From: Candidatus Sericytochromatia bacterium
GTDB lineage: Bacteria > Cyanobacteriota > Sericytochromatia > UBA7694
Direction of reading: 5' to 3'
Assembly (NCBI GenBank): GCA_050248915.1
Contig: JBFWRL010000077.1
Coordinates: 1 to 25,375 of the forward strand
DNA: 25,375 nucleotides
In this document: positions 7,133 to 20,599 of the stretch, in pieces
Numbering within the stretch: the first letter of the stretch is position 1
Layout: every line of letters starts with the position of its first letter
Notes under the pieces: model-generated
Database searches by the model: none
What the model was told of the DNA's origin: nothing
Seen by the model: the letters and a program-made list of their open reading frames with translations, nothing else
Translations under genes and position numbers: made by a program

Positions 7133-8407
7133 TTAAACTTTTTGATACAAACCTTTTGCGCGAATATAGCCCGCCACCTCAGGCAGCAGAGCTTGCTCCC
7201 AGCCTGATTGACCTGTTGCTACCGCCTGCCGGATCTGGGTCGAAGCCACGGGCAAATGCAGGGCCAAATACCTGCAACAATCAGCCCAATGTTTAGCCGC
7301 CGCCTGGCCAGCCTCAGAAAAGACCAATTCACTTTCGCGCCCACAGACCCAGAGCTGGGTATTTTGGGCAAAAAGACGTTCCAATCCCTCCTGCAATCCG
7401 CCGGAGAGCGTCGTATAATAACGCGGCTCAAAGACCCGGCGGTAGAGATCTTCGCCGCAGACAAAATCCACGCGCGCAGCGCCACCCGCCCGCCTGAATA
7501 ATTCGGCGGTTTGATACAGCGCGGGGGTGCAAGTCAGAGCCACAGGCCAGGGCTGAAAGGCCAACATCGCCAAACGATGGGCCAAATCGGTACTGGCGGC
7601 CTGGCCTTTATCGGCATTGCTGAGGCTGATTTCCAGCACTGGCAGTAATTCTGGGGCCTGTTTGAGCACAGCTTGGGGCAAGGCCAAATGGGCCTGTGTA
7701 AGGGGATTAAAGGCCCCTTTGTGCAAAAGTAGATTTTTGCCACGCAGCGCTTCCAATGGGCGTACCGCTTGCAAAGAACCCGCTTGGGGCAAAAACAGCA
7801 ATAACTCCGCGTGACCCGCTTGCAGCAATTCACAGGCTTTGAGGGTATTCTCAAAGGCTGAGAGATGCCAGCCCTGCCAGAGATCCATCTGAAATCCCGC
7901 AGGCAAAACCAAATGCAAAGGTGACAAGTCATTGTTTTCAGCCAATTGGCAAAGCAATTGCACCCCCACTTGACCCAGGCCAAATTGCTGCTCCAGCCTT
8001 GAAACCGCAGGCAAACGCAGGTGAATGCTCCAGCCCCGGCCATCAGACAGGGCCAGCGCCACCCAGACATGGTGATCGCCACGGATCTCGGTATCCGAGG
8101 CCACAACGCCACTCAAAGCCAACGAAAAAAAATGGTTCTGACTGTGTAAATTCTGCCGGGCCCAATTTTCAACCGTCTCACAGGCCACGGAACGGGCCTG
8201 TTGACCATAACGCAAAAGCTGGGCCGCTTGGGCATAAGTGCTGTATCCCGCCCAAAGGGTTGAAGAGGCACCGGGGGCACTTTGTAACAAAGTCTGTACC
8301 CAAGACCCTGTGCCCACCTCTTCGATCACACCCTGCCAAGGGGAATCATGCAAACAGAGCAGACCCTTCTGCAGAGCCAAAATTCGGTTTTCAAGCGAAT
8401 CTAACAT
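7133..8407 (-). CDS. Fusion protein: CinA C-terminal-like (PncC-type NMN deamidase) domain plus a NadD-like nicotinate/nicotinamide-nucleotide adenylyltransferase domain
   Basis: The N-terminal half (EEVGTGSWVQTLLQSAPGASSTLWAGYSTYAQAAQ...LSGVVAS...HVWVALALSDGRG) parallels the CinA-C/PncC core (ESCTGGW...AGSSAWFERGFVTYSNEAK...ISGIAGP...TVWFAFA). The C-terminal half (LLLHKGAFNPLTQAHLAL...FVCGEDL...ASTQIRQAV...IRAKGLY) parallels NadD (GGTFDPVHYGHL...ISATIIRERL...QQGLY), but the H-x-G-H motif reads T-Q-A-H. Confidence 0.55.
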   Translation of the reverse strand: MLDSLENRILALQKGLLCLHDSPWQGVIEEVGTGSWVQTLLQSAPGASSTLWAGYSTYAQAAQLLRYGQQARSVACETVENWARQNLHSQNHFFSLALSGVVASDTEIRGDHHVWVALALSDGRGWSIHLRLPAVSRLEQQFGLGQVGVQLLCQLAENNDLSPLHLVLPAGFQMDLWQGWHLSAFENTLKACELLQAGHAELLLFLPQAGSLQAVRPLEALRGKNLLLHKGAFNPLTQAHLALPQAVLKQAPELLPVLEISLSNADKGQAASTDLAHRLAMLAFQPWPVALTCTPALYQTAELFRRAGGAARVDFVCGEDLYRRVFEPRYYTTLSGGLQEGLERLFAQNTQLWVCGRESELVFSEAGQAAAKHWADCCRYLALHLPVASTQIRQAVATGQSGWEQALLPEVAGYIRAKGLYQKV

Positions 8408-8411
8408 GGAA

Positions 8412-9509
8412 TTAAACCTGGCTTTCCTGTTGCAATCCTGTCGATGCCGAGACAGATTCTGGGGGCAAGAACATAACCTTGAGTTCGGGACACTGGCTGA
8501 ATTTCCAGATCTTGCCGTCGATATAATAATGGAACAGGGTCAACATACTAAAAGGGGCAAAGAGCAGATAAAAAGTGGGCTGAGAATAGCCAAAGACCTC
8601 GATCACGCCCGCAATCAGGCCATAGAGCAAAGCCGCTCCCAGCCAGCGCAGGGCCACGTGGCGAATCTGGGGAAAGCGCCGCTGCTGATACACAGCCACA
8701 AAGCCATGGTACTGGGCATTGTGGTAGGCCGTTTCGAGGGCCTCTGCCACCAAAAAAGGCACGGCTGCCACAACAAAGATACAAAAATGGGTGAGCAGGG
8801 CCATGGCCATCACCAGCAATTTGGGCAAATTGAGGGCCTGTTTGGCACTGGCCAGATGCAATTGGCGCAGCACCAAAATGCCAAAGGCCATAAAACCAGC
8901 GGCCACGGCGGTATTGCCCAGCCATTCGGGCACAACCGGAAACCAGCCAAAATGGGGGCCGTAAATCGTCAGGGCCGTGATCGGCTCATCGCTGAGCTCG
9001 ACATAGTCGTAGACCACACAGGAGAGCAAAGATATCTGAATACACCAGGCATCGAGCCGGTGATCCAAGAGTCGTTCGGGTTCGTTGAGACCATGATACA
9101 AGCGCACAAAGCCCAAATGCTGCCTGACAATATGCCAAGAGCCATAAAGTGAGACCAGCCCAATCGCCCAGGGCTCCATGCCACTGGGCACAAACAAAAA
9201 TCCCGAGAGCAAAAACAGGGCCAGGCCCCAGGTATAGAGATGGGGGTGGCGCTTAAATTCATCGGGGTCGGCATGGGTGCGCGAAAAGGTCTGAAAAATA
9301 TGCGGCAGATCGAGAAAGGTGGTGAAAACAAAGTAGGTGATCAACACCGACATGCCGGTCGGATGGTAACCCAGATAGCGCAGCCCCTCATAAAAACCCC
9401 AAAAGACAAAACAGAGCAGACCTGAACCAACAAAGAGGGTCAGGTCATAGCGGGCGCTGACCAGCCAGCGGGAGCGAAAGGTCAGGCGGGGAGGGGCCGT
9501 CGTGGACAT
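8412..9509 (-). CDS. Polytopic membrane protein of unknown function with His-containing motifs (WHIVRQH, HNAQYHG, FHYY); translationally coupled to the next gene (4-nt gap)
   Basis: The product has about 8 hydrophobic segments. A GAGGT Shine-Dalgarno lies 5 nt before the ATG at 9509. No family was recognised from sequence. Confidence 0.45.
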   Translation of the reverse strand: MSTTAPPRLTFRSRWLVSARYDLTLFVGSGLLCFVFWGFYEGLRYLGYHPTGMSVLITYFVFTTFLDLPHIFQTFSRTHADPDEFKRHPHLYTWGLALFLLSGFLFVPSGMEPWAIGLVSLYGSWHIVRQHLGFVRLYHGLNEPERLLDHRLDAWCIQISLLSCVVYDYVELSDEPITALTIYGPHFGWFPVVPEWLGNTAVAAGFMAFGILVLRQLHLASAKQALNLPKLLVMAMALLTHFCIFVVAAVPFLVAEALETAYHNAQYHGFVAVYQQRRFPQIRHVALRWLGAALLYGLIAGVIEVFGYSQPTFYLLFAPFSMLTLFHYYIDGKIWKFSQCPELKVMFLPPESVSASTGLQQESQV

Positions 9510-10468: not shown

Positions 10469-10567
10469 TGTCTTTTTCCTTCCCCAGTTTAAACACTTCT
10501 AAATCTTGAGTTAGTCTCTTAATATTCTTTATAGGAAGAAAAAGATTTATCTTACGTCAACATTGAG

Positions 10568-11365
10568 TTAAGAATTAGTTAATTCAGACCAGAGCAAATG
10601 GGCCAATTGAGCCAGCCACAAATCAGACGCAGACTCATTTTCGAGCTGATCGGCAAAAACCGCCAAGACAATTTCTGCTTGCCCATCATGAATATATCCG
10701 ACATCGCTGCGGGTGCCTGGCAGCTCTCCGGGTTTATTGGCCACAAACACGGGCGGGTTAAAGAGAAAGGGAATTTTTTCGCGATCTTGCTGCTGGTGCA
10801 AAATGGCCAACATCTGTTCACAGCCCTCGGGGCCAGGTTCAGACAATTGGTGTCTGACCAATTTTTTCATCAGCAAGACCATATCTTCGGGGGTCGTCCA
10901 ATTGTCGATGCCGCGGGCACGGGCCTCTAAATCCATCATGCGCCGCTCGATGCGGGTCTGTTTGAGGCCATTTTTGCGAATCCAGCCCTGCAGCCGGGGC
11001 AGGCCAAAGAGCTTGATCAAGAGGTTGGTGGCCGTATTGTCGCTGATTATCGTCATTTGCCGCGCCACTTCATACCAGGAGACCGGCGTGCCGGGCGCTA
11101 AATGCTCAAAATAAGGGGAATCTTCGATCCAATCTTCACTCTGATAATAATAAGGCACATCGGGAATCCAGTCGCGTTCAGCGGCGGCGCAGTACATGGC
11201 CAGAATCGGCAATTTGATCGTGCTGGCAGCAAAAAAAGGGCGATTGCCATAACTCAGGCGTTTGCCCGTTTTTAAACACTCAGCGACAAAACCCGCCTGT
11301 CCCGCCAATTGCTCTAAATGCGTCTGCAGGCTCAGGGGCAAACCTGCAGCAGGATTTTTAGCCAT
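10568..11365 (-). CDS. Class A beta-lactamase-like serine hydrolase
   Basis: The start MAKNPAAG is at 11365; the ORF track extends to 11416. The S-x-x-K motif is ASTIKL, the SDN motif is ISDNTATNLL, the omega-loop-like segment is RIERRMMDLEA..NWTTP, and the KTG position reads KPG. The ATG overlaps the AI-2E stop (ATGGCTAA). Confidence 0.7.
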   Translation of the reverse strand: MAKNPAAGLPLSLQTHLEQLAGQAGFVAECLKTGKRLSYGNRPFFAASTIKLPILAMYCAAAERDWIPDVPYYYQSEDWIEDSPYFEHLAPGTPVSWYEVARQMTIISDNTATNLLIKLFGLPRLQGWIRKNGLKQTRIERRMMDLEARARGIDNWTTPEDMVLLMKKLVRHQLSEPGPEGCEQMLAILHQQQDREKIPFLFNPPVFVANKPGELPGTRSDVGYIHDGQAEIVLAVFADQLENESASDLWLAQLAHLLWSELTNS

Positions 11366-12506
11366 GAGACTCCCCATCCGGAACAGGACCCGTGGGCATC
11401 TGTGGCTCAGGCACAATCACATGTTTAACTTGGGGATAACCCAGGCCAATTTGCACCAATTCGATCAGGGTTAAAGTCAACACGACCATCAGCGGCGCCA
11501 AAACAAGCCCCAAAAAGCCAAAGACTTTTAATCCTCCCAAAACGGCCAGAAACAGAACCAGGGTATTCAGGCGATTGTCTTCACTGCTGACCGAGCTGAT
11601 CAGAATCGGACGCAAAATATTGTCGATCGTACCCACCACCAACATTCCCCAAAGCACCAGAATCAGGGCTTTGATCGGGTGCCCCTGAAAAAAGAGCCAA
11701 GCGGCAGCTGGGGCCCAGACCACAGGCGGGCCCACCAAGGGCAAAAAAGACATCACAGCCATGGTCACCCCCCAGAGAATGGCCGAAGGCACGCCCAAAA
11801 CCAGAAAGCCAATCCCCCCCAACAGGCCCTGGGCACAGGCCGTGCCGACCGAGCCAAAGATCGAGGCCTGAATCACCTCGCGCATGCGTCCCAAGACCAG
11901 ATCTTTGTATTGAGACTCTATCGGAATCAGGGATTTGAGGTAATCGACAAAGCGTTTGCCATCACAAAAGAGAAAAAAGAGATTGATCTCCACCAGCAGT
12001 AACAAAATCACCATGCCCGAGAGCGCCTTAAAAAAGTCTTTCGAACTCGCCAGCATAAACTGGCTCAGGCCCTTGAGGGCATTCATGGCCGTTGCTTTCA
12101 AATCAAGGGTTTCGACTTTGACAAAGCGGCTGAAGGTCTCTTGGATTTGTAATAGCCAGGGATGCTGCAAAAATGGGTGATGTTGTAGAGATTCAAAATC
12201 GAAATTTTGGGCAGAATGAGAGAGCTGTCGAGCGCCAGTGCTCATGTCTTGAAAGAGCAAGACCATTAAAAATATAAATGGCAAAACCAACCCCAAGGTC
12301 AATCCCAGACACATGAGCAAAGAAGCCAGCTCTGGATGCTTGGGCATGCGCGCCAGCAGACGGGCATAAAGAGGGTAAGTCAGGCTGACAAGCACCCCAG
12401 CCCAAAGCAATGAATTTATAAAGGGCTCAAAGATCAAAAAGATCTGCCAGAACATCGCTCCCAATAACAGAGCGACAAAAAGTGTAAAAAAGAGTTTGCG
12501 ATCCAT
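11358..12506 (-). CDS. AI-2E family transporter (PerM/YhhT-like, UPF0118)
   Basis: Eight-TM topology and a characteristic C-terminal core (LGVPSAILWGVT...SFLPLVGPPVVWAPAA...GTIDNILRPILIS...GLKVFGFLGLVLAPL). Confidence 0.8.
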   Translation of the reverse strand: MDRKLFFTLFVALLLGAMFWQIFLIFEPFINSLLWAGVLVSLTYPLYARLLARMPKHPELASLLMCLGLTLGLVLPFIFLMVLLFQDMSTGARQLSHSAQNFDFESLQHHPFLQHPWLLQIQETFSRFVKVETLDLKATAMNALKGLSQFMLASSKDFFKALSGMVILLLLVEINLFFLFCDGKRFVDYLKSLIPIESQYKDLVLGRMREVIQASIFGSVGTACAQGLLGGIGFLVLGVPSAILWGVTMAVMSFLPLVGPPVVWAPAAAWLFFQGHPIKALILVLWGMLVVGTIDNILRPILISSVSSEDNRLNTLVLFLAVLGGLKVFGFLGLVLAPLMVVLTLTLIELVQIGLGYPQVKHVIVPEPQMPTGPVPDGESHG

Positions 12507-12513
12507 GCTGCTG

Positions 12514-12519
12514 ATTATA
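12514..12519 (-). promoter_or_regulatory. Perfect -10 hexamer TATAAT exactly 7 nt upstream of the AI-2E ATG; candidate leaderless transcript
   Basis: The minus strand reads gcgggaaggTATAATcagcagcATG. The upstream -35 is weak (CAGACA at a 17-nt spacer). Confidence 0.35.
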
Positions 12520-12583
12520 CCTTCCCGCTTAAAAACTGTCTGGGAGTCCTGTCACAGCATCAAAAGCGCCCCCGTCACGCAGT

Positions 12584-15500
12584 TCAAAAGGCCTGGGCCA
12601 AAAAGCTGCGGCCCGCAAAGGTCTGAATGCGCTGCTGCCAGCGGGGCAGATCATAGCTTGCCCGCAAATACTCTCTCACAGCTCTGCCACTGTGAGAAAG
12701 CTGGGTCAAGGGCTGACCAAAAGCCTTGCGCAAGAGCCAAGCGAGTTGCAAAGGGTCATTCAACACAGCCTGTTCTGCAAAAGGGCGCTCTAAAAAAGGA
12801 AATTGACTTGCAGCAATCAGCTTACAACCAGCGGCTTGGGCTGCCAAAGCCCACAGTCCATCGCAGGCCGGATCCACTTCAATAAACACCTGAGAACCGG
12901 TATACAAACCCGGCAAATTGTGGGGGCCCAACTCTTCTTGAACAAAGGTCAGGGCGGGAATTTGCTCGGGGTCAAACCCCTGATTTTCCAACCAGGCCAT
13001 GACCTGTTCGATTGCCGAATCAAAACTTTGCATCAGGGGTTTGATCACGAGGTTGACGGGTTCGGGCTCGGCAAAGGTCTGAAGGTAGGCCTTCAACAAG
13101 TGCTGCCAAACCGGCTCAGAATCAGAAGTTGAAGAAAAATCAAGACAGGCAAAAAAACAGAAACGCCCCTGCGACTCCTCTAAAACCAAGGGAGAAGCCA
13201 TGGGTGAAAAAACATCAAAATCCACAGCCGGGGGCAAATACAGCAAGGCCTGTTCAGACCACCCCAGGGCCCTTAAAGCCAAACCTTGATCTGGATGGGC
13301 ATAAAAGACTGCGGCCACAGCAGCCGGATCAGGCAGCATCTGGGCTGGGGTTTGCAGCCAAACCCAGGCCGAGGTACCTGACCAGGGTGCCTGGGTCTGA
13401 AGTTGAAAACGGGTTTGGGCAGCGACAGGTACAAATTGCAAAAGTGCACTGGAATCAGGCACAGGGGCAAAGAACAGCGCTGGCTCAGGCCAAAAAACCC
13501 GCAGGGGGCGTTTTTCAAGCTCAGTCTCAGCCAAATTCAAACGCAAATACTGCTCCAAGCTCAACCCCCGCTCCCAGGCGTGGCCCAGATAGGCCTTAAA
13601 CTTGAGCTGCTGCCCCGTCTGCAAACATTGCGATAGCAGGTTTTGCAAACCGGGCAAACAGGGTTCTATTGCAGCGGGGATCGGCAATTCGCTGAGTTCA
13701 GGCCAGTGACCGGGCTGTTCAAGCGCGCTCTGCCAAGCGGCCTGGGCCTGAGCTGCAGCATCTCTGAGCGCGGGCTGCTGATTGCAGAGCCCGCCAATCT
13801 CAATGCGAATGCGCTCTGCCATGGCTTGCCAGGAATAAGCTTCCGCCTCTTTGCGGGCCGACCGACCTTTTTGCGCAATCAGCTCAGGTTCTGCGGCAAT
13901 CTGACGTAAACACTGGGCCAAAGCAGCCACATCCACCTCGTGATAATAAGGATAAAAAGGAGTCAGGCCAATATCCCCGAGGCTCTTGCCCAATTCAAAC
14001 GCGGTCCAGGTGGGCAGATACCAGGCTGAATCAGAAGAACTGAATTCGGGGGCTGGGCCCGCTTCGGGCACCACCACCGGCAAGCCACAGGCCATGGCTT
14101 CGAGAATGGGCAGTCCAAAGCCTTCGCCACGATAGGGATGAACATAGACATCACAGGCCCGGTAAAGTGCTGCCAAGTCTTGCTCAGAGAGATCGGAACG
14201 GGTAATTAGGTGCAACGCAGGAGCCGCTGGGTTTTCGCGAAAAAAGGCCAGGGGCTCCGCCAAAGAACCCGTGGAATAGACCCCCTGATCGCCAAATCCT
14301 TTGATCACCAAGGCCACATCATCAGCCGCACTGAAGGCCTGGGCATAGGCATTTAAAAGCAGATCAATGCCTTTGCGCTGAATCAGCCCCCCGACAAATA
14401 AAAAAACCGTTTTTTTGCGCTGGGGCAAAGGCCATTGGGGCCCATCGGGGCAATAGAGGGTTGTATCCACCCCATTTGGAATCACCCGGATGCGTTCGGG
14501 CACAAGTCCCGAATGCTCAAAGCTGCGAGCCACAAAGGCCGAAGGCACCCAGACCTGATCCAGAGCGGCATTAAATGTTTGCACCCAGCTTTCAGGCAAA
14601 ACCCCGTGTTCCCAGGGCAAAATATTGACCCACTTGCCCTGTTGGGGTGGCGAGAGCCGGGGTGGCCAACGATGGCTGATCAGCACATCGGGCCATTGCC
14701 AGTGATTGTTCAAATCCCCCGGCGGCTCAGACTCGGCAAATTCGGGGGGGTGAAAAGGCAATGTAGTGAAATAAAGAGAGGGATCTGTCTGTAATAATTC
14801 GAGCAAACGGCGGTTGATTCTGGCCAAACTGTGGTGAGACTGGATCGCACCTTCCCAGAGCAGATAGCCCTCCCGGCGCGGCTCCTGGGCAGCTGCAAAG
14901 GCAGCTGGGTGTTTGTGCCAGATCAGGCGCTCCAAAGCATGAAAAATCTCAACACTCTCCAAAGCCATCATGTGTCGCTGAGCCAGATCCCGCCCCGTTT
15001 GCACTTGGGCCAAGGCCTGTTCGGGCTGACTTTCCCCCAAGAGGGCGGCTCCGTGCAGGCGAAAGGGAATTTCCAGTGGGCAAGCGGCTTCGGCGGCAGC
15101 ATAGGCCTTTAAAAGCGCCGGGCCGTCTTGGAGAGCGGTTAAGGCCTGCAAATAGAGTTGAAAAAAGGGGGCCAACGGCGCCTCAGCCAGCACAGACTCC
15201 GCTTGTGCTCGCAGTTCGGGCCAACGCCCCAAGCCCTGAAGACACTCCAATTCAATCAATTTCAAAGAGAGTTCCAGCGCCTGTGGGGGCGGATACCAAA
15301 CGGACAAAGAGACATAAATTTGCTCTTGGGCCACCAACAGAGGCGGAAAATCCATCAGCGAAAAAGTTGAGCCTTTTAAGGCGGCCAAATGGTGCAGCGC
15401 CAGCCCCCATTGCTGTTGCTTCCAGGCCCAAACCAGGGCTTGTAGGGCCTGCAAGCGGGGGGGCAATTCAGCCAGACATTGATGCGCGGCCTGCAAGAGC

Positions 15501-16627
15501 GGCCCTGCTGCGGTCAGATTTAAGGGGTGAAAAGCCGCGCGCACATAATTGACCACCAGCCCGGAATAATAGCGCTGATCGCGCCCCCAAAGCGGGTCTT
15601 TGAGTAGATCCGGCAAAAGTGTCAAAGCCAGTGGATTCTCGGCTTGAGTCAGCGTAAGTGCCTCTGTTTCCAGTCTGAGCAAAGGTGATGAGGCATTGGC
15701 CTGCAAACGCGTTTGCACCCGCTGGTTGAGTTGTTCAGATTTTTCTTTCAGTTCCGCTTGTAGAGACCGAAAACAGGCCTGTAACGAAAAATTCGGCATG
15801 AGGGTCTGCACTGCCTGCAGAATCTGGCGGCGGCGGGGCGGATCCGCCTCCAAAGTGGCCAAGACAGTCCCCAATTGACCAGGGGCAAAATTCAGATAGT
15901 GTTCCCCCGCCTGTAAAGCAGGGGGTAACCCGTCAAAGCCTTCGGGGCAAAGCAAGACTGCGCCACAGGCCAAGCTCTCCAACAACCGTGCCGTCAAGCC
16001 AGGGTCGTCACAGATCACGTAGCGGCTGCGCTGGAAATAAAAAGGCAAAAAAGCGGGGGTGGTGGCAATAAAATAGCGGCATTTCCAAGGCGCGGGCAGG
16101 GATTCATAAGCGGGCAAAGCAGGCGAGTAGGGATTGCTGGCAATATAGATCAGGTCATAGAGCGGTTCTGGCTCTGCCAGCGGATGGTGCAAAGCGGGTT
16201 CAAGGCCCTGCCAGCGGGTCTGCAAAACCGGCAAACCCAGGCGCGAAAAAAGCGCAAAGGCCTTTTCAGACAGAGCCACCAGACCATCATAAAGCGCCAA
16301 AACCCGACGGATATCCGCCTCAGACAACCCCTTGGGCAGATCCGCAAAAGCGATCAATGGCAACCCACTTTGAAAGCAATGGCGGGGAGGCAAACGTTTG
16401 TGGGGCTCCAAGAGAAAGAGCCATTCCGCCTCAGGAAAATGGACAGAGCAAAGCGCATTTAAGGCCGGCAATTGTGTGCTGACCTGCGTTCCCGGCAGTT
16501 CATAATTAAAGGCCTTGCTCTCCCAAGGGGTGTCAGACAATTCCAGCGCTCGCTCATCTGCCAAAGTCCGGCGCAAGGCCTGATCCAATCCCTGGCGGAA
16601 GTCGGGCCCCCAGAGTATTTTCACCAA
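12584..16627 (-). CDS. Giant multidomain glycosyltransferase (1347 aa): N-terminal GT-B C-half-like domain, helical/TPR-like region, complete GT4 domain, and a C-terminal third GT-B-like domain
   Basis: The GT4 signature is KKTVFLFVGGLIQRKGIDLL...CDVYVHPYRGEGFGLPILEAMACGLPVVV. The N-terminal region has ESLACGAVLLCPEGFDGL and the C-terminal region has FFACLDFSS...NLVIKP...AAGCKLIAAS. The start is TTG at 16627 or GTG at 16624, directly after the upstream TAA. Confidence 0.8.
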   Translation of the reverse strand: MVKILWGPDFRQGLDQALRRTLADERALELSDTPWESKAFNYELPGTQVSTQLPALNALCSVHFPEAEWLFLLEPHKRLPPRHCFQSGLPLIAFADLPKGLSEADIRRVLALYDGLVALSEKAFALFSRLGLPVLQTRWQGLEPALHHPLAEPEPLYDLIYIASNPYSPALPAYESLPAPWKCRYFIATTPAFLPFYFQRSRYVICDDPGLTARLLESLACGAVLLCPEGFDGLPPALQAGEHYLNFAPGQLGTVLATLEADPPRRRQILQAVQTLMPNFSLQACFRSLQAELKEKSEQLNQRVQTRLQANASSPLLRLETEALTLTQAENPLALTLLPDLLKDPLWGRDQRYYSGLVVNYVRAAFHPLNLTAAGPLLQAAHQCLAELPPRLQALQALVWAWKQQQWGLALHHLAALKGSTFSLMDFPPLLVAQEQIYVSLSVWYPPPQALELSLKLIELECLQGLGRWPELRAQAESVLAEAPLAPFFQLYLQALTALQDGPALLKAYAAAEAACPLEIPFRLHGAALLGESQPEQALAQVQTGRDLAQRHMMALESVEIFHALERLIWHKHPAAFAAAQEPRREGYLLWEGAIQSHHSLARINRRLLELLQTDPSLYFTTLPFHPPEFAESEPPGDLNNHWQWPDVLISHRWPPRLSPPQQGKWVNILPWEHGVLPESWVQTFNAALDQVWVPSAFVARSFEHSGLVPERIRVIPNGVDTTLYCPDGPQWPLPQRKKTVFLFVGGLIQRKGIDLLLNAYAQAFSAADDVALVIKGFGDQGVYSTGSLAEPLAFFRENPAAPALHLITRSDLSEQDLAALYRACDVYVHPYRGEGFGLPILEAMACGLPVVVPEAGPAPEFSSSDSAWYLPTWTAFELGKSLGDIGLTPFYPYYHEVDVAALAQCLRQIAAEPELIAQKGRSARKEAEAYSWQAMAERIRIEIGGLCNQQPALRDAAAQAQAAWQSALEQPGHWPELSELPIPAAIEPCLPGLQNLLSQCLQTGQQLKFKAYLGHAWERGLSLEQYLRLNLAETELEKRPLRVFWPEPALFFAPVPDSSALLQFVPVAAQTRFQLQTQAPWSGTSAWVWLQTPAQMLPDPAAVAAVFYAHPDQGLALRALGWSEQALLYLPPAVDFDVFSPMASPLVLEESQGRFCFFACLDFSSTSDSEPVWQHLLKAYLQTFAEPEPVNLVIKPLMQSFDSAIEQVMAWLENQGFDPEQIPALTFVQEELGPHNLPGLYTGSQVFIEVDPACDGLWALAAQAAGCKLIAASQFPFLERPFAEQAVLNDPLQLAWLLRKAFGQPLTQLSHSGRAVREYLRASYDLPRWQQRIQTFAGRSFLAQAF

Positions 16628-17947
16628 TTATAACCAGACGATGCGGGCCCGCGCGGGCTGACAATCGCGCAGGGCATTGCGGGTATCCACCAAAAGAGGC
16701 AGTTGATCGCAGAACATCTGGTGATCTACCCCTTGCCGGTGGTGGGTCACCACCACGCCGCAGGCATAAGCCGAGAGATCGGTCAAAGAGACCGAATGCA
16801 GGATCTGCCCTTCGAGCTCAAATTGGGGAATATACGGATCAAAATACTCCACTTGGGCCCCTTTCGACCAGAGCAATTGAATCAGCTCCAAGGCCGGTGA
16901 TTCACGCATATCATCGACATCAGACTTATACGCCACGCCAATCACCAGCACTTTGCTGCCTTTGAGTGGCAGGCCATGATCGTTGAGGGCCTCCATGATC
17001 AATTGCAGCACCTCGCGGGGCATGGCTGAATTGATCTGCTCTGCCAAGGCCATAAAACGCGGCTCATAGCCATGTAAGCGGGATTTCCAAATCAAATAAT
17101 GGGGATCGAGGGGAATACAGTGGCCGCCAATGCCGGGTCCGGGTAAAAATTTCATAAAGCCAAAAGGTTTGGTGGCAGCTGCATCAATCACTTCCCAGAC
17201 ATCCACCCCCAAGACCCGACAAATGCCTGCAAATTCATTCACCAAGGCAATATTGACACTGCGAAAGGTATTTTCCAAAATTTTAGCGGCCTCCGCTACC
17301 CGAGCCGAAGAGACCGAGTGAACCTGTCCCATCACCTGCCGATACAAGGCTGCGGCGACTTCGGTACAGGCGGGGGTGACTCCCCCCACTACTTTGGGAA
17401 TTTGAGCAACCTGAAACTGTTGATTGCCCGGATCTATCCGCTCGGGTGAAAAGGCCAATAAAAAGTCTTGACCGACTTTATAAGCGGTTTTTTCAAACAT
17501 CGGCAAGAGAATTTCGTCGGTGGTGCCGGGATACGTTGTGCTCTCCAAGATGACCAATTGACCGGGTCTGAGTATGTTGACAATTTCTTCAGCCGCCGCC
17601 AAAATATACGAAATATCGGGTTCTTTGCTCTTGCGCAAAGGGGTGGGCACACAGATAATCAGGGCATCTGCGTCTTTTAAATGGGAAAAATCGCTGCTAA
17701 AGACCGTGCTGGGCAGGGTGTTTAAACGGGCCACAAAATCGTCGGGGATATCTTGAATATACGATTTTCCTGCCTGTAGAGCCTGAATTTTACGGGCATC
17801 CACATCGATCCCTGTCACGGGAAAGCCTTCCCGAGAAAAGGCCTCCAAAAGTGGCAAGCCGACATATCCCAGCCCAATCACACCAATTCGGGTGGTTCGC
17901 TGCGCCAGCGTGTTTAAAAATTTTGCAACAAGGGATGTATTTGACAT
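16628..17947 (-). CDS. Nucleotide-sugar dehydrogenase of the UDP-N-acetyl-D-hexosamine dehydrogenase family (WbpA/TviB/WecC-like)
   Basis: The start MSNTS is at 17947. The Rossmann motif is IGVIGLGYVGLPL, and the product also contains ICVPTPL and the family-typical ERIDPGN and C-terminal region. The ORF-track start at 18040 is probably an upstream extension. Confidence 0.85.
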   Translation of the reverse strand: MSNTSLVAKFLNTLAQRTTRIGVIGLGYVGLPLLEAFSREGFPVTGIDVDARKIQALQAGKSYIQDIPDDFVARLNTLPSTVFSSDFSHLKDADALIICVPTPLRKSKEPDISYILAAAEEIVNILRPGQLVILESTTYPGTTDEILLPMFEKTAYKVGQDFLLAFSPERIDPGNQQFQVAQIPKVVGGVTPACTEVAAALYRQVMGQVHSVSSARVAEAAKILENTFRSVNIALVNEFAGICRVLGVDVWEVIDAAATKPFGFMKFLPGPGIGGHCIPLDPHYLIWKSRLHGYEPRFMALAEQINSAMPREVLQLIMEALNDHGLPLKGSKVLVIGVAYKSDVDDMRESPALELIQLLWSKGAQVEYFDPYIPQFELEGQILHSVSLTDLSAYACGVVVTHHRQGVDHQMFCDQLPLLVDTRNALRDCQPARARIVWL

Positions 17948-17954
17948 GGATTTT

Positions 17955-17960
17955 ATTATA
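17955..17960 (-). promoter_or_regulatory. Perfect -10 hexamer TATAAT exactly 7 nt upstream of the dehydrogenase ATG; candidate leaderless transcript
   Basis: The minus strand reads caagagTATAATaaaatccATG. There is no convincing -35. Confidence 0.35.
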
Positions 17961-18023: not shown

Positions 18024-18656
18024 ATGTCAGCCTGCCCCAACTGTCAAAATTCTGAACAGAAACGCGAACCCACGGCTTACGGAGATTGGACCCGCTGTCT
18101 CAAATGTCGGGCCTACTACGCCCCCACCCCCAACAAAACCATGCCTGCAGAACCAAGTGCCCAAAACGCTTTAAACATCTTTCAAACCATCCAGAATGAA
18201 ACGGGTCAGCACCTCTCCTGGCAAGCCCCCTCTCCCAAAATTTATCTTTTGACAGGGGGGATCACAGCCCTGTTTGGCGGCCTTTTTCTACTGGGTGGCG
18301 TCTGGCTGGGCCATTGGAGTTATGCCCTGATCGGCCTCTTATTTGGGGGGCTGATGCTCTGGATCGGCGGAGATCAATTGCGCAAAGGCCTGAATACCCA
18401 CCAGCTCAGCCTGAGCAGCAGCGGAAAAATCCAGGTAAAAACCGGCCCTTGGCCCCATCAGGGCTACCCACTGGCAGTGGAACCCAGTGAGCCACTGTTT
18501 TGCAGGGTTTTTCGGCAAGAGCAACTTTCGCTGTTTGAGCTTTACACGCGTCAAAACGGCAAAGCCAAACGTGTCACCCCCGCTGAGTTGGCAAGCAAAG
18601 AACAGGCCTTTTGGCTGCTCTATCGCTGCAAAAGACCATCACAGCCCCCCATTTAA
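18024..18656 (+). CDS. Zn-ribbon (CPNC...CLKC) membrane protein with 2 TM segments, unknown function
   Basis: N-terminal C-x2-C-x17-C-x2-C, two hydrophobic helices rich in GxxxG (LLTGGITALFGGLFLLGGVWLG; LIGLLFGGLMLWIGG) and a soluble C-terminal domain. Its stop shares a TTAA tetramer with the convergent gene's stop. Confidence 0.5.
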   Translation: MSACPNCQNSEQKREPTAYGDWTRCLKCRAYYAPTPNKTMPAEPSAQNALNIFQTIQNETGQHLSWQAPSPKIYLLTGGITALFGGLFLLGGVWLGHWSYALIGLLFGGLMLWIGGDQLRKGLNTHQLSLSSSGKIQVKTGPWPHQGYPLAVEPSEPLFCRVFRQEQLSLFELYTRQNGKAKRVTPAELASKEQAFWLLYRCKRPSQPPI

Positions 18657-20125
18657 CGGCGTTGGCAGCGCCAAACGGGCAGGGCATTGCTGATGCCTTT
18701 GAGAAACGCCGAACGGGCCTCAAAAGCATAACCTGATTCACTTAAAATCACCTCGGTGGTGGGGTTGAAGACGGTCTCACTCACCCAGATTTCTCCCGCT
18801 TCAGCGAGTCCCTGAATGCGAGCGGCCAAATTGACGGTCTGCCCAAAGAAATCAAGACGTTCATTGGCATTGACTGCCAAAACCGGCCCTGTGTGCAAAC
18901 CCACCTTGAGCCCCAATTGTACTTCTGCGCTGGGCTGATTGAGGGCCTCAATGGCTTCCACCATTTCCAAGGCTGCCCGCAAACCATCAGCAGGGCTAGA
19001 AAAGGTCGCCATAATCGCATCTCCAATGGTTTTGACCACCGAACCAGCATGGTTACGGGTGCAGGCCGTGAGCAAATCAAAATGACGCTGCACCAAGGCA
19101 TAAGCCTGATAATCTCCGGTTTGTTCATACATCGCTGTTGAGCCCTTGAGATCGGTAAACATCACCGTTTGACTGCCGATCGAGAGGCGCAGGTCGGGAT
19201 CCAATTGCTGAATTTTATAGATTTCGCGAAAGGTCTGGTGATTGAGCAATGCTTTGGCACTCAAAAAAGGCAGCAACTGACTGGGATATTGCTGCAAAAC
19301 CGCCACGATGGCCTCAAAATCAAATTTCCAAAAGGTCAAAATGCGGGTCGTGGCACTGCAATTGTGAATCCGCACACTGACCTCCCCGGCCGGCAAGTGG
19401 CGCTCATTTTCAACAAAGCCCATTTCGCTGATATCCGTATCCACGACCACAGGCAGTTCGGCCAAGTCGCTGCCGGTTTTGAGCCAAAATTGGCTGTGAC
19501 TTTGCAAATTGATCACCCGGTAAACACAGTTGGGTTCGGCCTTCAGCGGCAAACTGACCCGCTCATTGGGGTCCACCCAATAGAGCCCCAAACACAGGGA
19601 CTGCATCAGCGGCAGCAATTGCGGCGCATGTTTCATGCTGGCCGAAAAATAGCTGCGATAATAATTTTCGAGACTGGCCATGGGAGCCACCTGTTCTGAA
19701 AAGTCGGCAATACCCGGATGCAATCCAAAGGTCACTTCCACCTGTTGATCCAGAGAAAAATTGACGTCTTTATTGCAAACAGGACAAAAGACATGGCCCT
19801 CTTTTAAACCGTTGATACTCCCATAGGTGTATTCGGTGCTGCCACAACCCAGACAGACAATCGTCCAATTCAGGTCAAAGAGGCCAATCCGGGTGCTGAA
19901 AAGCAGCAAATCGAGCAAACTAGAAAGATCTAAATCGTAATCCTGCGCCAATTGCAAAGGGTTCAAACGCAGCAATTGCCAAGGGCTGAGCTGAGGCAAA
20001 ATCTCACCAAAACGCTGAACCAAGCCCACCGGCAATTGGGGATAATGTTCCAAGGCCTTGAGCTTGCGTTGCAGGGTTTCATTGAACACGCTGAGACACC
20101 TCATTTGAATCAGTTTTGCCTGCAC
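18653..20125 (-). CDS. Class III adenylate/guanylate cyclase with an N-terminal domain containing a Zn-ribbon
   Basis: The C-terminal cyclase homology domain reads VMFTDLKGSTAMYE..GDAIMATF...GLHTGPV...DFFGQTVNLAARIQ. The N-terminal region has CLGCGS-x18-CPVCNKD. The start is ambiguous: GTG at 20125 or ATG (M8) at 20104. Confidence 0.8.
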   Translation of the reverse strand: MQAKLIQMRCLSVFNETLQRKLKALEHYPQLPVGLVQRFGEILPQLSPWQLLRLNPLQLAQDYDLDLSSLLDLLLFSTRIGLFDLNWTIVCLGCGSTEYTYGSINGLKEGHVFCPVCNKDVNFSLDQQVEVTFGLHPGIADFSEQVAPMASLENYYRSYFSASMKHAPQLLPLMQSLCLGLYWVDPNERVSLPLKAEPNCVYRVINLQSHSQFWLKTGSDLAELPVVVDTDISEMGFVENERHLPAGEVSVRIHNCSATTRILTFWKFDFEAIVAVLQQYPSQLLPFLSAKALLNHQTFREIYKIQQLDPDLRLSIGSQTVMFTDLKGSTAMYEQTGDYQAYALVQRHFDLLTACTRNHAGSVVKTIGDAIMATFSSPADGLRAALEMVEAIEALNQPSAEVQLGLKVGLHTGPVLAVNANERLDFFGQTVNLAARIQGLAEAGEIWVSETVFNPTTEVILSESGYAFEARSAFLKGISNALPVWRCQRR

Positions 20126-20206: not shown

Positions 20207-20599
20207 ATGAACATTGGTCAACTTGCCAAAGCCTCAGGCGTCAATGCCAAATTGATTCGCTATTACGAATCCATTGGCCTGATTCCCCCTGCCGAGCGCA
20301 GTGAATCAAACTACCGGGTCTATCGCGAAACAGATGTCCATTTTCTCAAATTTATCAAACGTTCGCGCAAATTGGGCTTTGGCATTCCAGATATTCAGGT
20401 TCTGCTCAGCCTCTGGCAAGACAGCGCCCGCTCCAGTGCCGAAGTCAAAGAATTGGCACAAAAGCATATTCAGAGCCTCGAAGCCCAAATGACTGAGATG
20501 CAGGCCATGCTCAAGACGCTCAAACGCCTGTCGCAAACCTGCCACGGCGACGAGCGTCCTGAATGCCCCATTCTGGAGGAGCTGGCCCAAGACCGCTAG
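20207..20599 (+). CDS. cueR: MerR-family Cu(I)-responsive regulator (CueR/HmrR type)
   Basis: The N-terminal helix-turn-helix is MNIGQLAKASGVNAKLIRYYESIGLI. A dimerisation helix follows, and the C-terminal metal-binding loop CHGDERPEC has the same Cys-x7-Cys spacing as the CueR Cu(I) site. Confidence 0.75.
   Translation: MNIGQLAKASGVNAKLIRYYESIGLIPPAERSESNYRVYRETDVHFLKFIKRSRKLGFGIPDIQVLLSLWQDSARSSAEVKELAQKHIQSLEAQMTEMQAMLKTLKRLSQTCHGDERPECPILEELAQDR

Follow-up and report, generated by a model that had tools for sequence, protein, structure and literature searches.

The closest described counterparts of the genes reported here are the Vi antigen system of Salmonella Typhi, the glycosyltransferases (GTs) of flagellin loci, the WbdA-type multi-domain GTs, the class A β-lactamase-fold proteins such as Tll2115 and the transporters of the AI-2E family. 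The genes form a block at positions 10568-17947, on the minus strand, of the 25,375-nucleotide (nt) contig JBFWRL010000077.1, the whole of which we term the window. It derives from Candidatus Sericytochromatia/Blackallbacteria, a non-photosynthetic sister lineage of the cyanobacteria, which is poorly known and, to our knowledge, has no cultured representatives and almost no experimental biology. The block encodes a nucleotide-sugar dehydrogenase, a giant GT, an AI-2E transporter and a β-lactamase-like (Bla-like) hydrolase. Judged from gene order in relatives, it is composed of two independently conserved gene pairs, which are neighbours only in the clade to which the window belongs. Neither of these units overturns current understanding, and their interest is moderate, mainly as defined targets in this lineage.

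The described systems compare with the locus as follows. The Vi antigen system: like our locus it combines a nucleoside diphosphate (NDP)-N-acetylhexosamine (HexNAc) 6-dehydrogenase of the same broad branch with a soluble retaining GT of family GT4 that has extra non-catalytic parts, and its complex includes tetratricopeptide repeat (TPR) elements in the TPR-containing TviD. In our locus, however, the TPR elements and two pseudo-GT modules are part of the GT polypeptide itself, the dehydrogenase misses the TviB equivalog score, and no TviC epimerase, TviD acetyltransferase or Vex export genes were seen among the window genes or the flanks examined in relatives. The GT4/GT2-TPR proteins of flagellin loci, as in Geothrix: their GT4 core is 37-45% identical to that of the giant GT and they too are cytoplasmic, TPR-bearing and without export genes; they differ in carrying genuine tandem GT4 domains rather than degenerate ones and in almost never having an adjacent dehydrogenase. 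The FlmG-type enzymes: FlmG is reported to bind flagellin through its TPR domain (PMC7591256). Enzymes of this type transfer nonulosonic acids and belong to a different family. The WbdA-type tandem multi-GT4 enzymes: these likewise place several GT-B modules in one soluble polypeptide of more than 800 amino acids (aa), whereas the giant GT keeps donor motifs in one module only, has an inserted TPR solenoid and is accompanied by no ATP-binding cassette (ABC)-transporter O-antigen genes. Tll2115 and the structures 4EWF and 4HES: these share with the Bla-like protein the class A β-lactamase fold and the S-x-x-K and S-D-N motifs, and 4HES shares in addition the R-x-MMD motif of the omega loop. The Bla-like group differs from them in its predicted cytoplasmic location, an invariant K-P-G and translational coupling to an AI-2E permease. 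Tll2115 is presumably the protein named PBP-A in the literature. The AI-2E transporters: the characterised members export autoinducer-2 (TqsA/YdgG) or exchange Na+(Li+) and H+ (a UPF0118 antiporter), and none has been linked to glycans (PMC9475539, PMC7221264). The window protein belongs to the same Pfam family and is likewise a multi-helix membrane protein; it differs in not being an equivalog of YdiK or YtvI and in being paired with a serine hydrolase.

Two gene pairs with separate conservation

The block comprises these genes:

16628-17947, minus strand: dehydrogenase, 439 aa from the ATG at 17947 (homologues 439-444 aa)
12584-16624, minus strand: giant GT, 1346 aa from the GTG at 16624; the open reading frame (ORF) reaches the TTG at 16627 (12584-16627, 1347 aa)
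11358-12506, minus strand: AI-2E transporter, 382 aa
10568-11365, minus strand: Bla-like gene, 265 aa from the ATG at 11365 (homologues 256-279 aa)

All four assignments are backed by Pfam (E-values 1e-18 to 1e-51). Since the homologues of the GT begin MKILWGPD, its true start is probably the GTG at 16624. The original prediction, made from the window sequence, described four consecutive minus-strand genes with junctions of 0-76 nt; the genes and their coordinates are borne out, and the junctions are 3 nt between dehydrogenase and GT, 77 rather than 76 nt between GT and AI-2E, and an overlap of 8 nt (-8) between AI-2E and the Bla-like gene. The same four-gene order recurs in seven related Sericytochromatia loci, which count as six distinct contigs because L001 and L004 are one contig; the genes and their close spacing are therefore real, far beyond chance. 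These close relatives, compared for context at 60-78% GT identity (a 94% identical relative, P0001, stood outside this comparison), in fact keep a seven-gene order of dehydrogenase, GT, AI-2E, Bla-like, a 293-aa protein, a 365-aa membrane protein and a 424-aa NadD-like protein. The genes flanking the block are conserved in them as well. As genomes of such similarity conserve even flanking genes, synteny within the close clade says little on function.

Beyond the close clade the two pairs separate. In L014 and L094, where the GT is 46% and 37% identical respectively, a dehydrogenase (70% and 64% identical) lies directly upstream of the GT, and no AI-2E or Bla-like gene was found within 8-10 kb of the pair. 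Conversely, orthologues of the Bla-like gene in L009, L010, L011 and L013 (59, 55, 49 and 47% identity) all have an AI-2E gene immediately upstream and overlapping, and neither dehydrogenase nor GT was found in the last three of these loci; the L009 sequence starts at the AI-2E gene and hence covers nothing upstream of the pair. This separation outside the close clade argues for two independent pairs rather than one unit, and the interpretation of the four genes as a single operon does not hold. The original prediction had taken them as one operon whose order should be sought in orthologous loci. That order is kept only in the close clade, a pattern which the prediction had itself set beforehand as counting against it. 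Its further suggestion, that the AI-2E transporter and the hydrolase serve in glycan export or processing, is left without support by the independent conservation of the pairs. The comparison thus corrects an error of annotation by adjacency: the AI-2E and Bla-like genes should not be taken for glycan export or processing genes, nor for resistance genes.

The dehydrogenase

The dehydrogenase contains the three UDPG_MGDP_dh Pfam domains (PF03721, PF00984 and PF03720, with E-values of 2.5e-44, 1.7e-30 and 2.4e-18) and the catalytic-cysteine motif GGHCIP, and scores 409 bits against a cut-off of 190 on the NDP-sugar dehydrogenase subfamily model TIGR03026. Its nearest solved structures are the UDP-ManNAc dehydrogenases 4R16 and Cap5O (E ~1e-65), ahead of a UDP-glucose dehydrogenase (7e-40). 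It scores 231 bits on the TviB equivalog model (cut-off 592), 238 on WecC (459) and 266 on the archaeal UDP-ManNAc dehydrogenase model (750), with the UDP-glucose dehydrogenase models lower, at 38-179 bits. Because the scores on the former models beat those on the UDP-glucose models yet miss every equivalog cut-off, the enzyme is best placed in the UDP-N-acetylhexosamine-type branch, to which it likely belongs, with no specific substrate assigned. This agrees with its earlier description as a WbpA/TviB-type UDP-HexNAc dehydrogenase. The neighbourhoods examined showed neither a 2-epimerase nor a 4-epimerase.

Architecture and active site of the giant glycosyltransferase

The giant GT is made up of three GT-B-type modules and a TPR-like spacer, as the original prediction had it (three modules with a helical spacer):

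15743-16627, minus strand: N module (aa 1-295), complete GT-B fold with non-canonical motifs
14876-15742, minus strand: TPR-like α-helical solenoid (aa 296-584)
13793-14875, minus strand: central canonical GT4 catalytic domain (aa 585-945), with E835-x7-E843 at 14099-14125
12587-13510, minus strand: C module (aa 1040-1347), divergent GT4-type without donor-binding motifs

The three modules are recognised by different means. Pfam finds a single clear GT4 domain, at aa 665-940, through Glycos_transf_1 (6e-20), Glyco_trans_1_4 (9e-20) and Glyco_transf_4 (2e-7); PF00534 and PF13692 score 71.9 and 71.8 bits over aa 737-862, against cut-offs of 26.4 and 27. Searched separately, the N part barely passes PF13524 (26.7 bits), and the middle and C parts have no Pfam match. 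The N module is established by its predicted fold: a structure prediction for aa 1-600, based on a 13-sequence alignment (predicted local distance difference test, pLDDT, 88.9; predicted template modelling score, pTM, 0.86), gives a two-Rossmann GT-B fold for the module and a solenoid of TPR-like helical hairpins for the spacer. The corresponding model of aa 585-1347, from a six-sequence alignment, reached a pLDDT of only 42, so the folds assigned to the central and C modules rest on sequence profiles. The C module aligns with the protein's own central GT4 in hhalign (E 6e-5 over 212 columns), and its profile aligns with Glycos_transf_1/Glyco_trans_1_4 stretches in hundreds of matches, at E-values of 1e-8 to 1e-12 in the proteins checked. 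Profiles of the N and C modules found no significant match among PDB sequences. No transmembrane segment is predicted in the protein, which is, on this prediction, soluble and cytoplasmic.

The family with this architecture is a defined one. An exhaustive profile search with the C part returned 19 clusters at E below 1e-30, nearly all of proteins of ~1070-1340 aa with the C module at the C-terminal end, and two further members, P0181 and P0198, at 7e-20 and 5e-14; identity to the query among these family members is 25-46%. A word-indexed search yielded only five full-length relatives, the other proteins of ~1250 aa in it being genuine tandem triple-GT4 proteins matched solely through the central domain. 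A single-protein scan of a genome collection found no relatives of the GT, an alignment-based scan of the same collection found only four Sericytochromatia genomes, all ~78% identical, and a further homology search with a 23-member alignment found nothing beyond the five known close relatives. Pfam also lists GT4-conflict, but we rejected this as a sign of a defence system, the similarity being generic to GT4 and PADLOC giving no match.

The donor-binding motifs differ sharply between the modules. In the 23-member family alignment, the central GT4 has EGFGLPILE (aa 835-843) and R751-K752-G753, which are invariant or nearly so. In the C module the positions of R751 and K752 are occupied by E and P, and the E-x7-E motif is replaced by D1256-x7-Q1264, of which the Q is nearly invariant in the family. 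In the N module Pro209 stands at the first Glu; the second is E217 here, in a column without a majority residue (consensus HFxALAxGA) where some members have Q. The modules also evolve differently: the GT4 core is 71-97% identical among close relatives and the other parts 46-77% in all but the nearest relative, and the giant GT is the fastest-evolving gene of the block, outpacing every neighbour. The possibility raised earlier that the modules are degenerate thus holds in part: the E-x7-E is intact in the central GT4, and the N and C modules lack canonical donor-binding motifs. By these motifs the protein has one canonical active site, that of the central GT4, and the flanking modules are probably inactive, binding rather than catalysing. 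We accordingly define an uncharacterised family of giant GTs with one apparently live and two seemingly degenerate GT-B modules and a TPR solenoid, usually accompanied by a HexNAc-type dehydrogenase.

A probable protein-glycosylating role of the dehydrogenase-GT pair

The explanation of the locus that we favour, and hold as a whole to be modestly probable, has two unrelated modules. In the first, the dehydrogenase would oxidise a UDP-N-acetylhexosamine-type sugar to its uronic acid, and the giant GT, translationally coupled to it across the 3-nt gap and predicted to act in the cytoplasm, would transfer that sugar from its single GT4 site in the retaining manner of GT4 enzymes. As donor of the GT the uronic-acid sugar is likely, since the two genes stay tightly coupled in relatives with as little as 37% GT identity. 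Acceptor binding or scaffolding is the probable task of the TPR-like solenoid and of the two motif-less GT-B modules. The most likely acceptor would be a cytoplasmic protein, as in O-glycosylation of the flagellin type, rather than a lipid-linked surface polysaccharide. In the second module, which would be unrelated to the first, the hydrolase would act inside the cell on the small-molecule cargo of the AI-2E permease, before its export or after its import.

A protein acceptor is favoured on two grounds: the lack of glycan-export genes in the contexts examined and the occurrence of GT4-core relatives in flagellin loci. As to the first, no initiating transferase, flippase, polymerase or polysaccharide exporter was seen near the pair in L002, L014 and L094. 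As to the second, more than 555 relatives of the GT4 core came out of a metagenome scan for two motifs of the family, and among the best 80, which were examined, L014 alone is a full-length family member. The remaining 79 loci are core-only, with a GT4 core 37-45% identical, and 51 of them are at least 10 kb long. Flagellar genes lie within 10 kb of the core in 13 of the 79 (flagellin in 12, FliD alone in one), and in 10 of the 51 longer loci; GT2-TPR homologues occur in roughly 45 of the 79. By our own estimate, which is not a computed control, ~1 Mb of random bacterial DNA holds about one flagellin gene. The Geothrix relative (L008) adjoins fliC, flaG, fliD and fliS. Within Sericytochromatia, the window, L001 and L003-L005 share a gene of the flagellar hook family, situated ~5 kb beyond the downstream end of the block:

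275-2191, minus strand: 638-aa flagellar hook-family protein, matching only the FlgE/F/G D1 domain and seemingly with a large central insertion

By the similarity of their cores, the giant GT family is evolutionarily tied to the GTs of flagellin loci, and the pair probably has a cytoplasmic protein-glycosylating role of the kind found in flagellin islands. That flagellin itself is the acceptor we consider only a tentative proposal, and an unlikely one as it stands. The literature on flagella of Sericytochromatia yielded nothing specific to these genes.

Several observations weigh against this explanation. A tblastn search with the Geothrix FliC, FlaG, FliD and FliS found no flagellin or filament genes in the window or in the Sericytochromatia loci examined, and in L002, L014 and L094 the pair has no hook gene in its vicinity. 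A dehydrogenase lies near the GT4 core in just one of the 79 core-only loci. The deepest GT relatives checked, L095 (30% identity) and L096 (25-30%), have no adjacent dehydrogenase, from which it follows that the link between dehydrogenase and donor is not universal. The Gln and Asp replacements in the flanking modules do not prove inactivity. Read-through from the GT into the AI-2E gene may occur, as the sole terminator-like hairpin ahead of the 77-nt gap is a weak one. The relatives all come from metagenome-assembled genomes. Finally, the product may be a polymer, because processive polymerisation of a polysaccharide can be the work of a single GT4 domain, as with TviE of the Vi antigen pathway (PMC8760489).

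This last point underlies the main rival, which we rate as unlikely, though as the best placed of the alternatives: that the GT is a TviE-like processive polymerase making a poly-HexNAc-uronic acid capsule or exopolysaccharide, with the TPR and pseudo-GT modules scaffolding an export machinery encoded elsewhere. A dehydrogenase of the TviB branch (231 bits on the TviB model) next to a GT4 enzyme indeed mirrors TviB with TviE; TviE alone polymerises the Vi antigen, and TPR domains organise that complex (PMC8760489); and fast divergence like that of the GT is typical for genes of surface glycans. However, the TviB equivalog cut-off of 592 is missed, no TviE-type model figures among the 22 NCBIfam matches, and the surroundings of the pair in the window, L002, L014 and L094 contain neither a TviC-like epimerase nor an acetyltransferase nor an exporter of the ABC/Vex type, while the GT4-core relatives associate with flagellin loci rather than capsule loci. 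We thus retain transfer to a cytoplasmic protein as the preferred role of the pair.

A broader joint reading, which we regard as doubtful, would have the ~1300-aa family as a self-contained cytoplasmic protein O-glycosyltransferase that adds a HexNAc-uronic acid to flagellin or to an abundant secreted protein, such as the strongly signalled 293-aa neighbour, and the AI-2E permease and the KPG-bearing hydrolase as a new transporter-hydrolase couple; an example of its function would be the uptake and cleavage of a D-amino-acid-containing peptide or a cell-wall fragment. If true, it would mean a chemistry of protein or flagellin glycosylation and an enzyme architecture not yet described, in a sister lineage of the cyanobacteria.

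It is improbable, in our estimate, that all three GT-B modules are catalytic and that the protein builds an oligosaccharide repeat on its own, in the manner of the WbdA-type O-antigen polymerases. True tandem triple-GT4 proteins of ~1250 aa are common, the N module has a complete GT-B fold, and all the modules are conserved, still with 57-61% identity in the most distant of the close relatives, and retain family-invariant polar residues. Yet throughout the family the R/K and E-x7-E donor motifs are missing from the N and C modules, which also evolve faster than the core, and the family hidden Markov model matches the tandem GT4 proteins only via the central domain. A single catalytic site, that of the central GT4, remains the better account.

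Transcription signals and the single-operon model

Two promoter-like elements bear on whether the pairs form separate units:

17955-17960, minus strand: TATAAT hexamer, 7 nt upstream of the dehydrogenase ATG, without Shine-Dalgarno sequence, leaderless-type; conserved in L001-L003
12514-12542, minus strand: promoter-like CAGACA-17-TATAAT, ending 7 nt before the AI-2E ATG, without Shine-Dalgarno sequence, leaderless-type

In a consensus scan of 11.7 kb, the site before the AI-2E gene ties for the best score (10/12); it is conserved in L001-L003, its TATAAT being 12514-12519. The scan listed no full promoter before the dehydrogenase, which indicates that the -35 element there is poor. The presence of TATAAT 7 nt before the ATGs of both the dehydrogenase and AI-2E suggests that leaderless mRNAs are used in this lineage; the description of the AI-2E gene as leaderless in the original prediction is supported by its site. 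These signals, as consensus matches with their conservation, agree with separate units, and the AI-2E/Bla-like module probably uses its own leaderless-type promoter.

The model first offered for the region, in which all four genes form one operon making a HexNAc-uronic-acid-containing glycan that the AI-2E transporter exports and the β-lactamase-fold hydrolase processes, is very unlikely. The genes are co-oriented with the short junctions given above, their order is kept in the window and the seven related loci (six contigs), and no strong terminator lies between the GT and AI-2E. However, that synteny was observed among close relatives, in which the flanking genes are conserved as well, and immediately outside the clade the pairs split; the AI-2E gene has its own promoter-like site; a cytoplasmic hydrolase is ill-suited to the processing of an exported glycan; and the cargo of the characterised AI-2E members is a small signal molecule or cations instead of glycans (PMC9475539, PMC7221264). 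An operon extending over all seven genes of the conserved order was likewise considered and rejected, as the genes further downstream come with a separate conserved promoter region and a terminator, and the last gene resembles NAD housekeeping.

The AI-2E/Bla-like pair

The AI-2E protein matches PF01594 over aa 7-349 (146 bits against a cut-off of 34.3, E 1.5e-42), has six to eight hydrophobic segments and falls below the equivalog cut-offs of both YdiK and YtvI. The Bla-like protein matches PF13354 (Beta-lactamase2; 173 bits, E 5e-51) and scores 81 bits on the NCBIfam class A model, whose cut-off is 200. Its nearest structures are 4EWF, 4HES and the cyanobacterial Tll2115 protein, the three matches having E-values of 4e-23, 9e-15 and 6e-14. 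All 38 Bla-like orthologues have the motifs STIK and SDN, and all have K-P-G instead of K-T/S-G, within NKPGELPG in 36 of the 38; the omega loop reads R-x-MMD. An ungapped reading against TEM numbering shows no evident Glu at position 166. Just 39-55 residues precede the active Ser in the orthologues, from which we infer that the hydrolase has no signal peptide and is cytoplasmic. By these features it is a cytoplasmic acyl-serine hydrolase of the class A fold, not a canonical β-lactamase.

The overlap of the two genes, conserved down to 47% identity of the hydrolase, strengthens the earlier proposal that they are co-functional. They define a second uncharacterised unit, a permease translationally coupled to a cytoplasmic class-A-fold hydrolase; a literature search on the AI-2E family found no such pairing with a serine hydrolase and nothing specific to these genes. 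The simplest account is presumably that the hydrolase acts on the cargo of the permease, any specific substrate being speculative. That it is instead a functional β-lactamase conferring antibiotic resistance, with AI-2E as its efflux partner, has hardly any probability in our view: the class A fold and the intact S-x-x-K and S-D-N would fit, but it has KPG in place of KTG/KSG and no evident Glu166 in the ungapped reading above, reaches 81 of the 200 bits required for class A, finds its nearest structures in uncharacterised proteins and Tll2115, and lacks a signal peptide, whereas the targets of β-lactams sit outside the cytoplasmic membrane, so that the original prediction was right to set resistance aside.

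In a separate locus, L012, a 35%-identical Bla-like gene (8001-8771) overlaps the gene of a DUF3267 membrane protein rather than of an AI-2E transporter, with base 8001 shared. From this pairing, the coupling of such hydrolases with membrane proteins may be a more general theme.

Neighbouring genes and elements

Beyond the two pairs the window holds the following elements around the block, given here from the Bla-like gene downstream and then upstream of the dehydrogenase:

10469-10567, minus strand: intergenic region of 99 nt, putative promoter and 5' untranslated region (UTR) of the 293-aa gene; nearly identical in L001-L007
9587-10468, minus strand: 293-aa protein with a Pro-rich middle and a Gly/Ala/Met-rich C-terminal half; adjoins AI-2E/Bla-like in L001-L007 and L009
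9533-9558, minus strand: strong hairpin of the intrinsic-terminator type behind the 293-aa gene, with a 10-bp stem and a T-run; kept in relatives with changes on both arms
8412-9509, minus strand: 365-aa His-rich membrane protein, conserved in L001-L007 and L009
7133-8407, minus strand: 424-aa protein with a weakly CinA-like N-terminal half and a NadD-like nucleotidyltransferase C-terminal half; syntenic in the close clade only
5549-6958, minus strand: 469-aa protein with a major-vault-protein shoulder/SPFH domain
18024-18656, plus strand: 210-aa ORF, divergent from the dehydrogenase
18653-20125, minus strand: DUF5939-adenylate/guanylate cyclase, just upstream of the dehydrogenase
20207-20599, plus strand: MerR-family regulator, just upstream of the dehydrogenase

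In the 99-nt region, a block of ~30 nt, AGACTAACTCAAGATTTAGAAGTGTTTAA, and the ribosome-binding site GGGGAAGGA persist even in L009, despite identities of just 59-74% for the neighbouring proteins. A search of the whole window against Rfam, this region included, found no match. Such a region could represent the regulated 5' UTR of a gene with high expression. The 293-aa protein it precedes has no match in Pfam, NCBIfam or PADLOC. Conservation of the downstream hairpin through base changes on both arms suggests that the gene is monocistronic; it belongs to the conserved block but probably forms a separate transcript.

The 365-aa protein has no match in Pfam, NCBIfam or PDB; with its His motifs WHIVRQH, YHNAQYH and FHYYIDGKIWK it may be a membrane metalloenzyme. 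The H-x-G-H motif of the NadD-like half of the 424-aa protein reads T-Q-A-H, and this protein is probably concerned with NAD-related housekeeping. A distant homologue of it (23%) is found near the dehydrogenase-GT pair in L014. The 210-aa ORF has no family match and is a real conserved gene, 60-76% identical in relatives. The cyclase gene adjoins the dehydrogenase in L002 and L006 as well. The gene of the 469-aa protein is present in the window and in L006 and absent from that position in L001 and L003-L005, and is thus a variable insertion in an otherwise conserved synteny.

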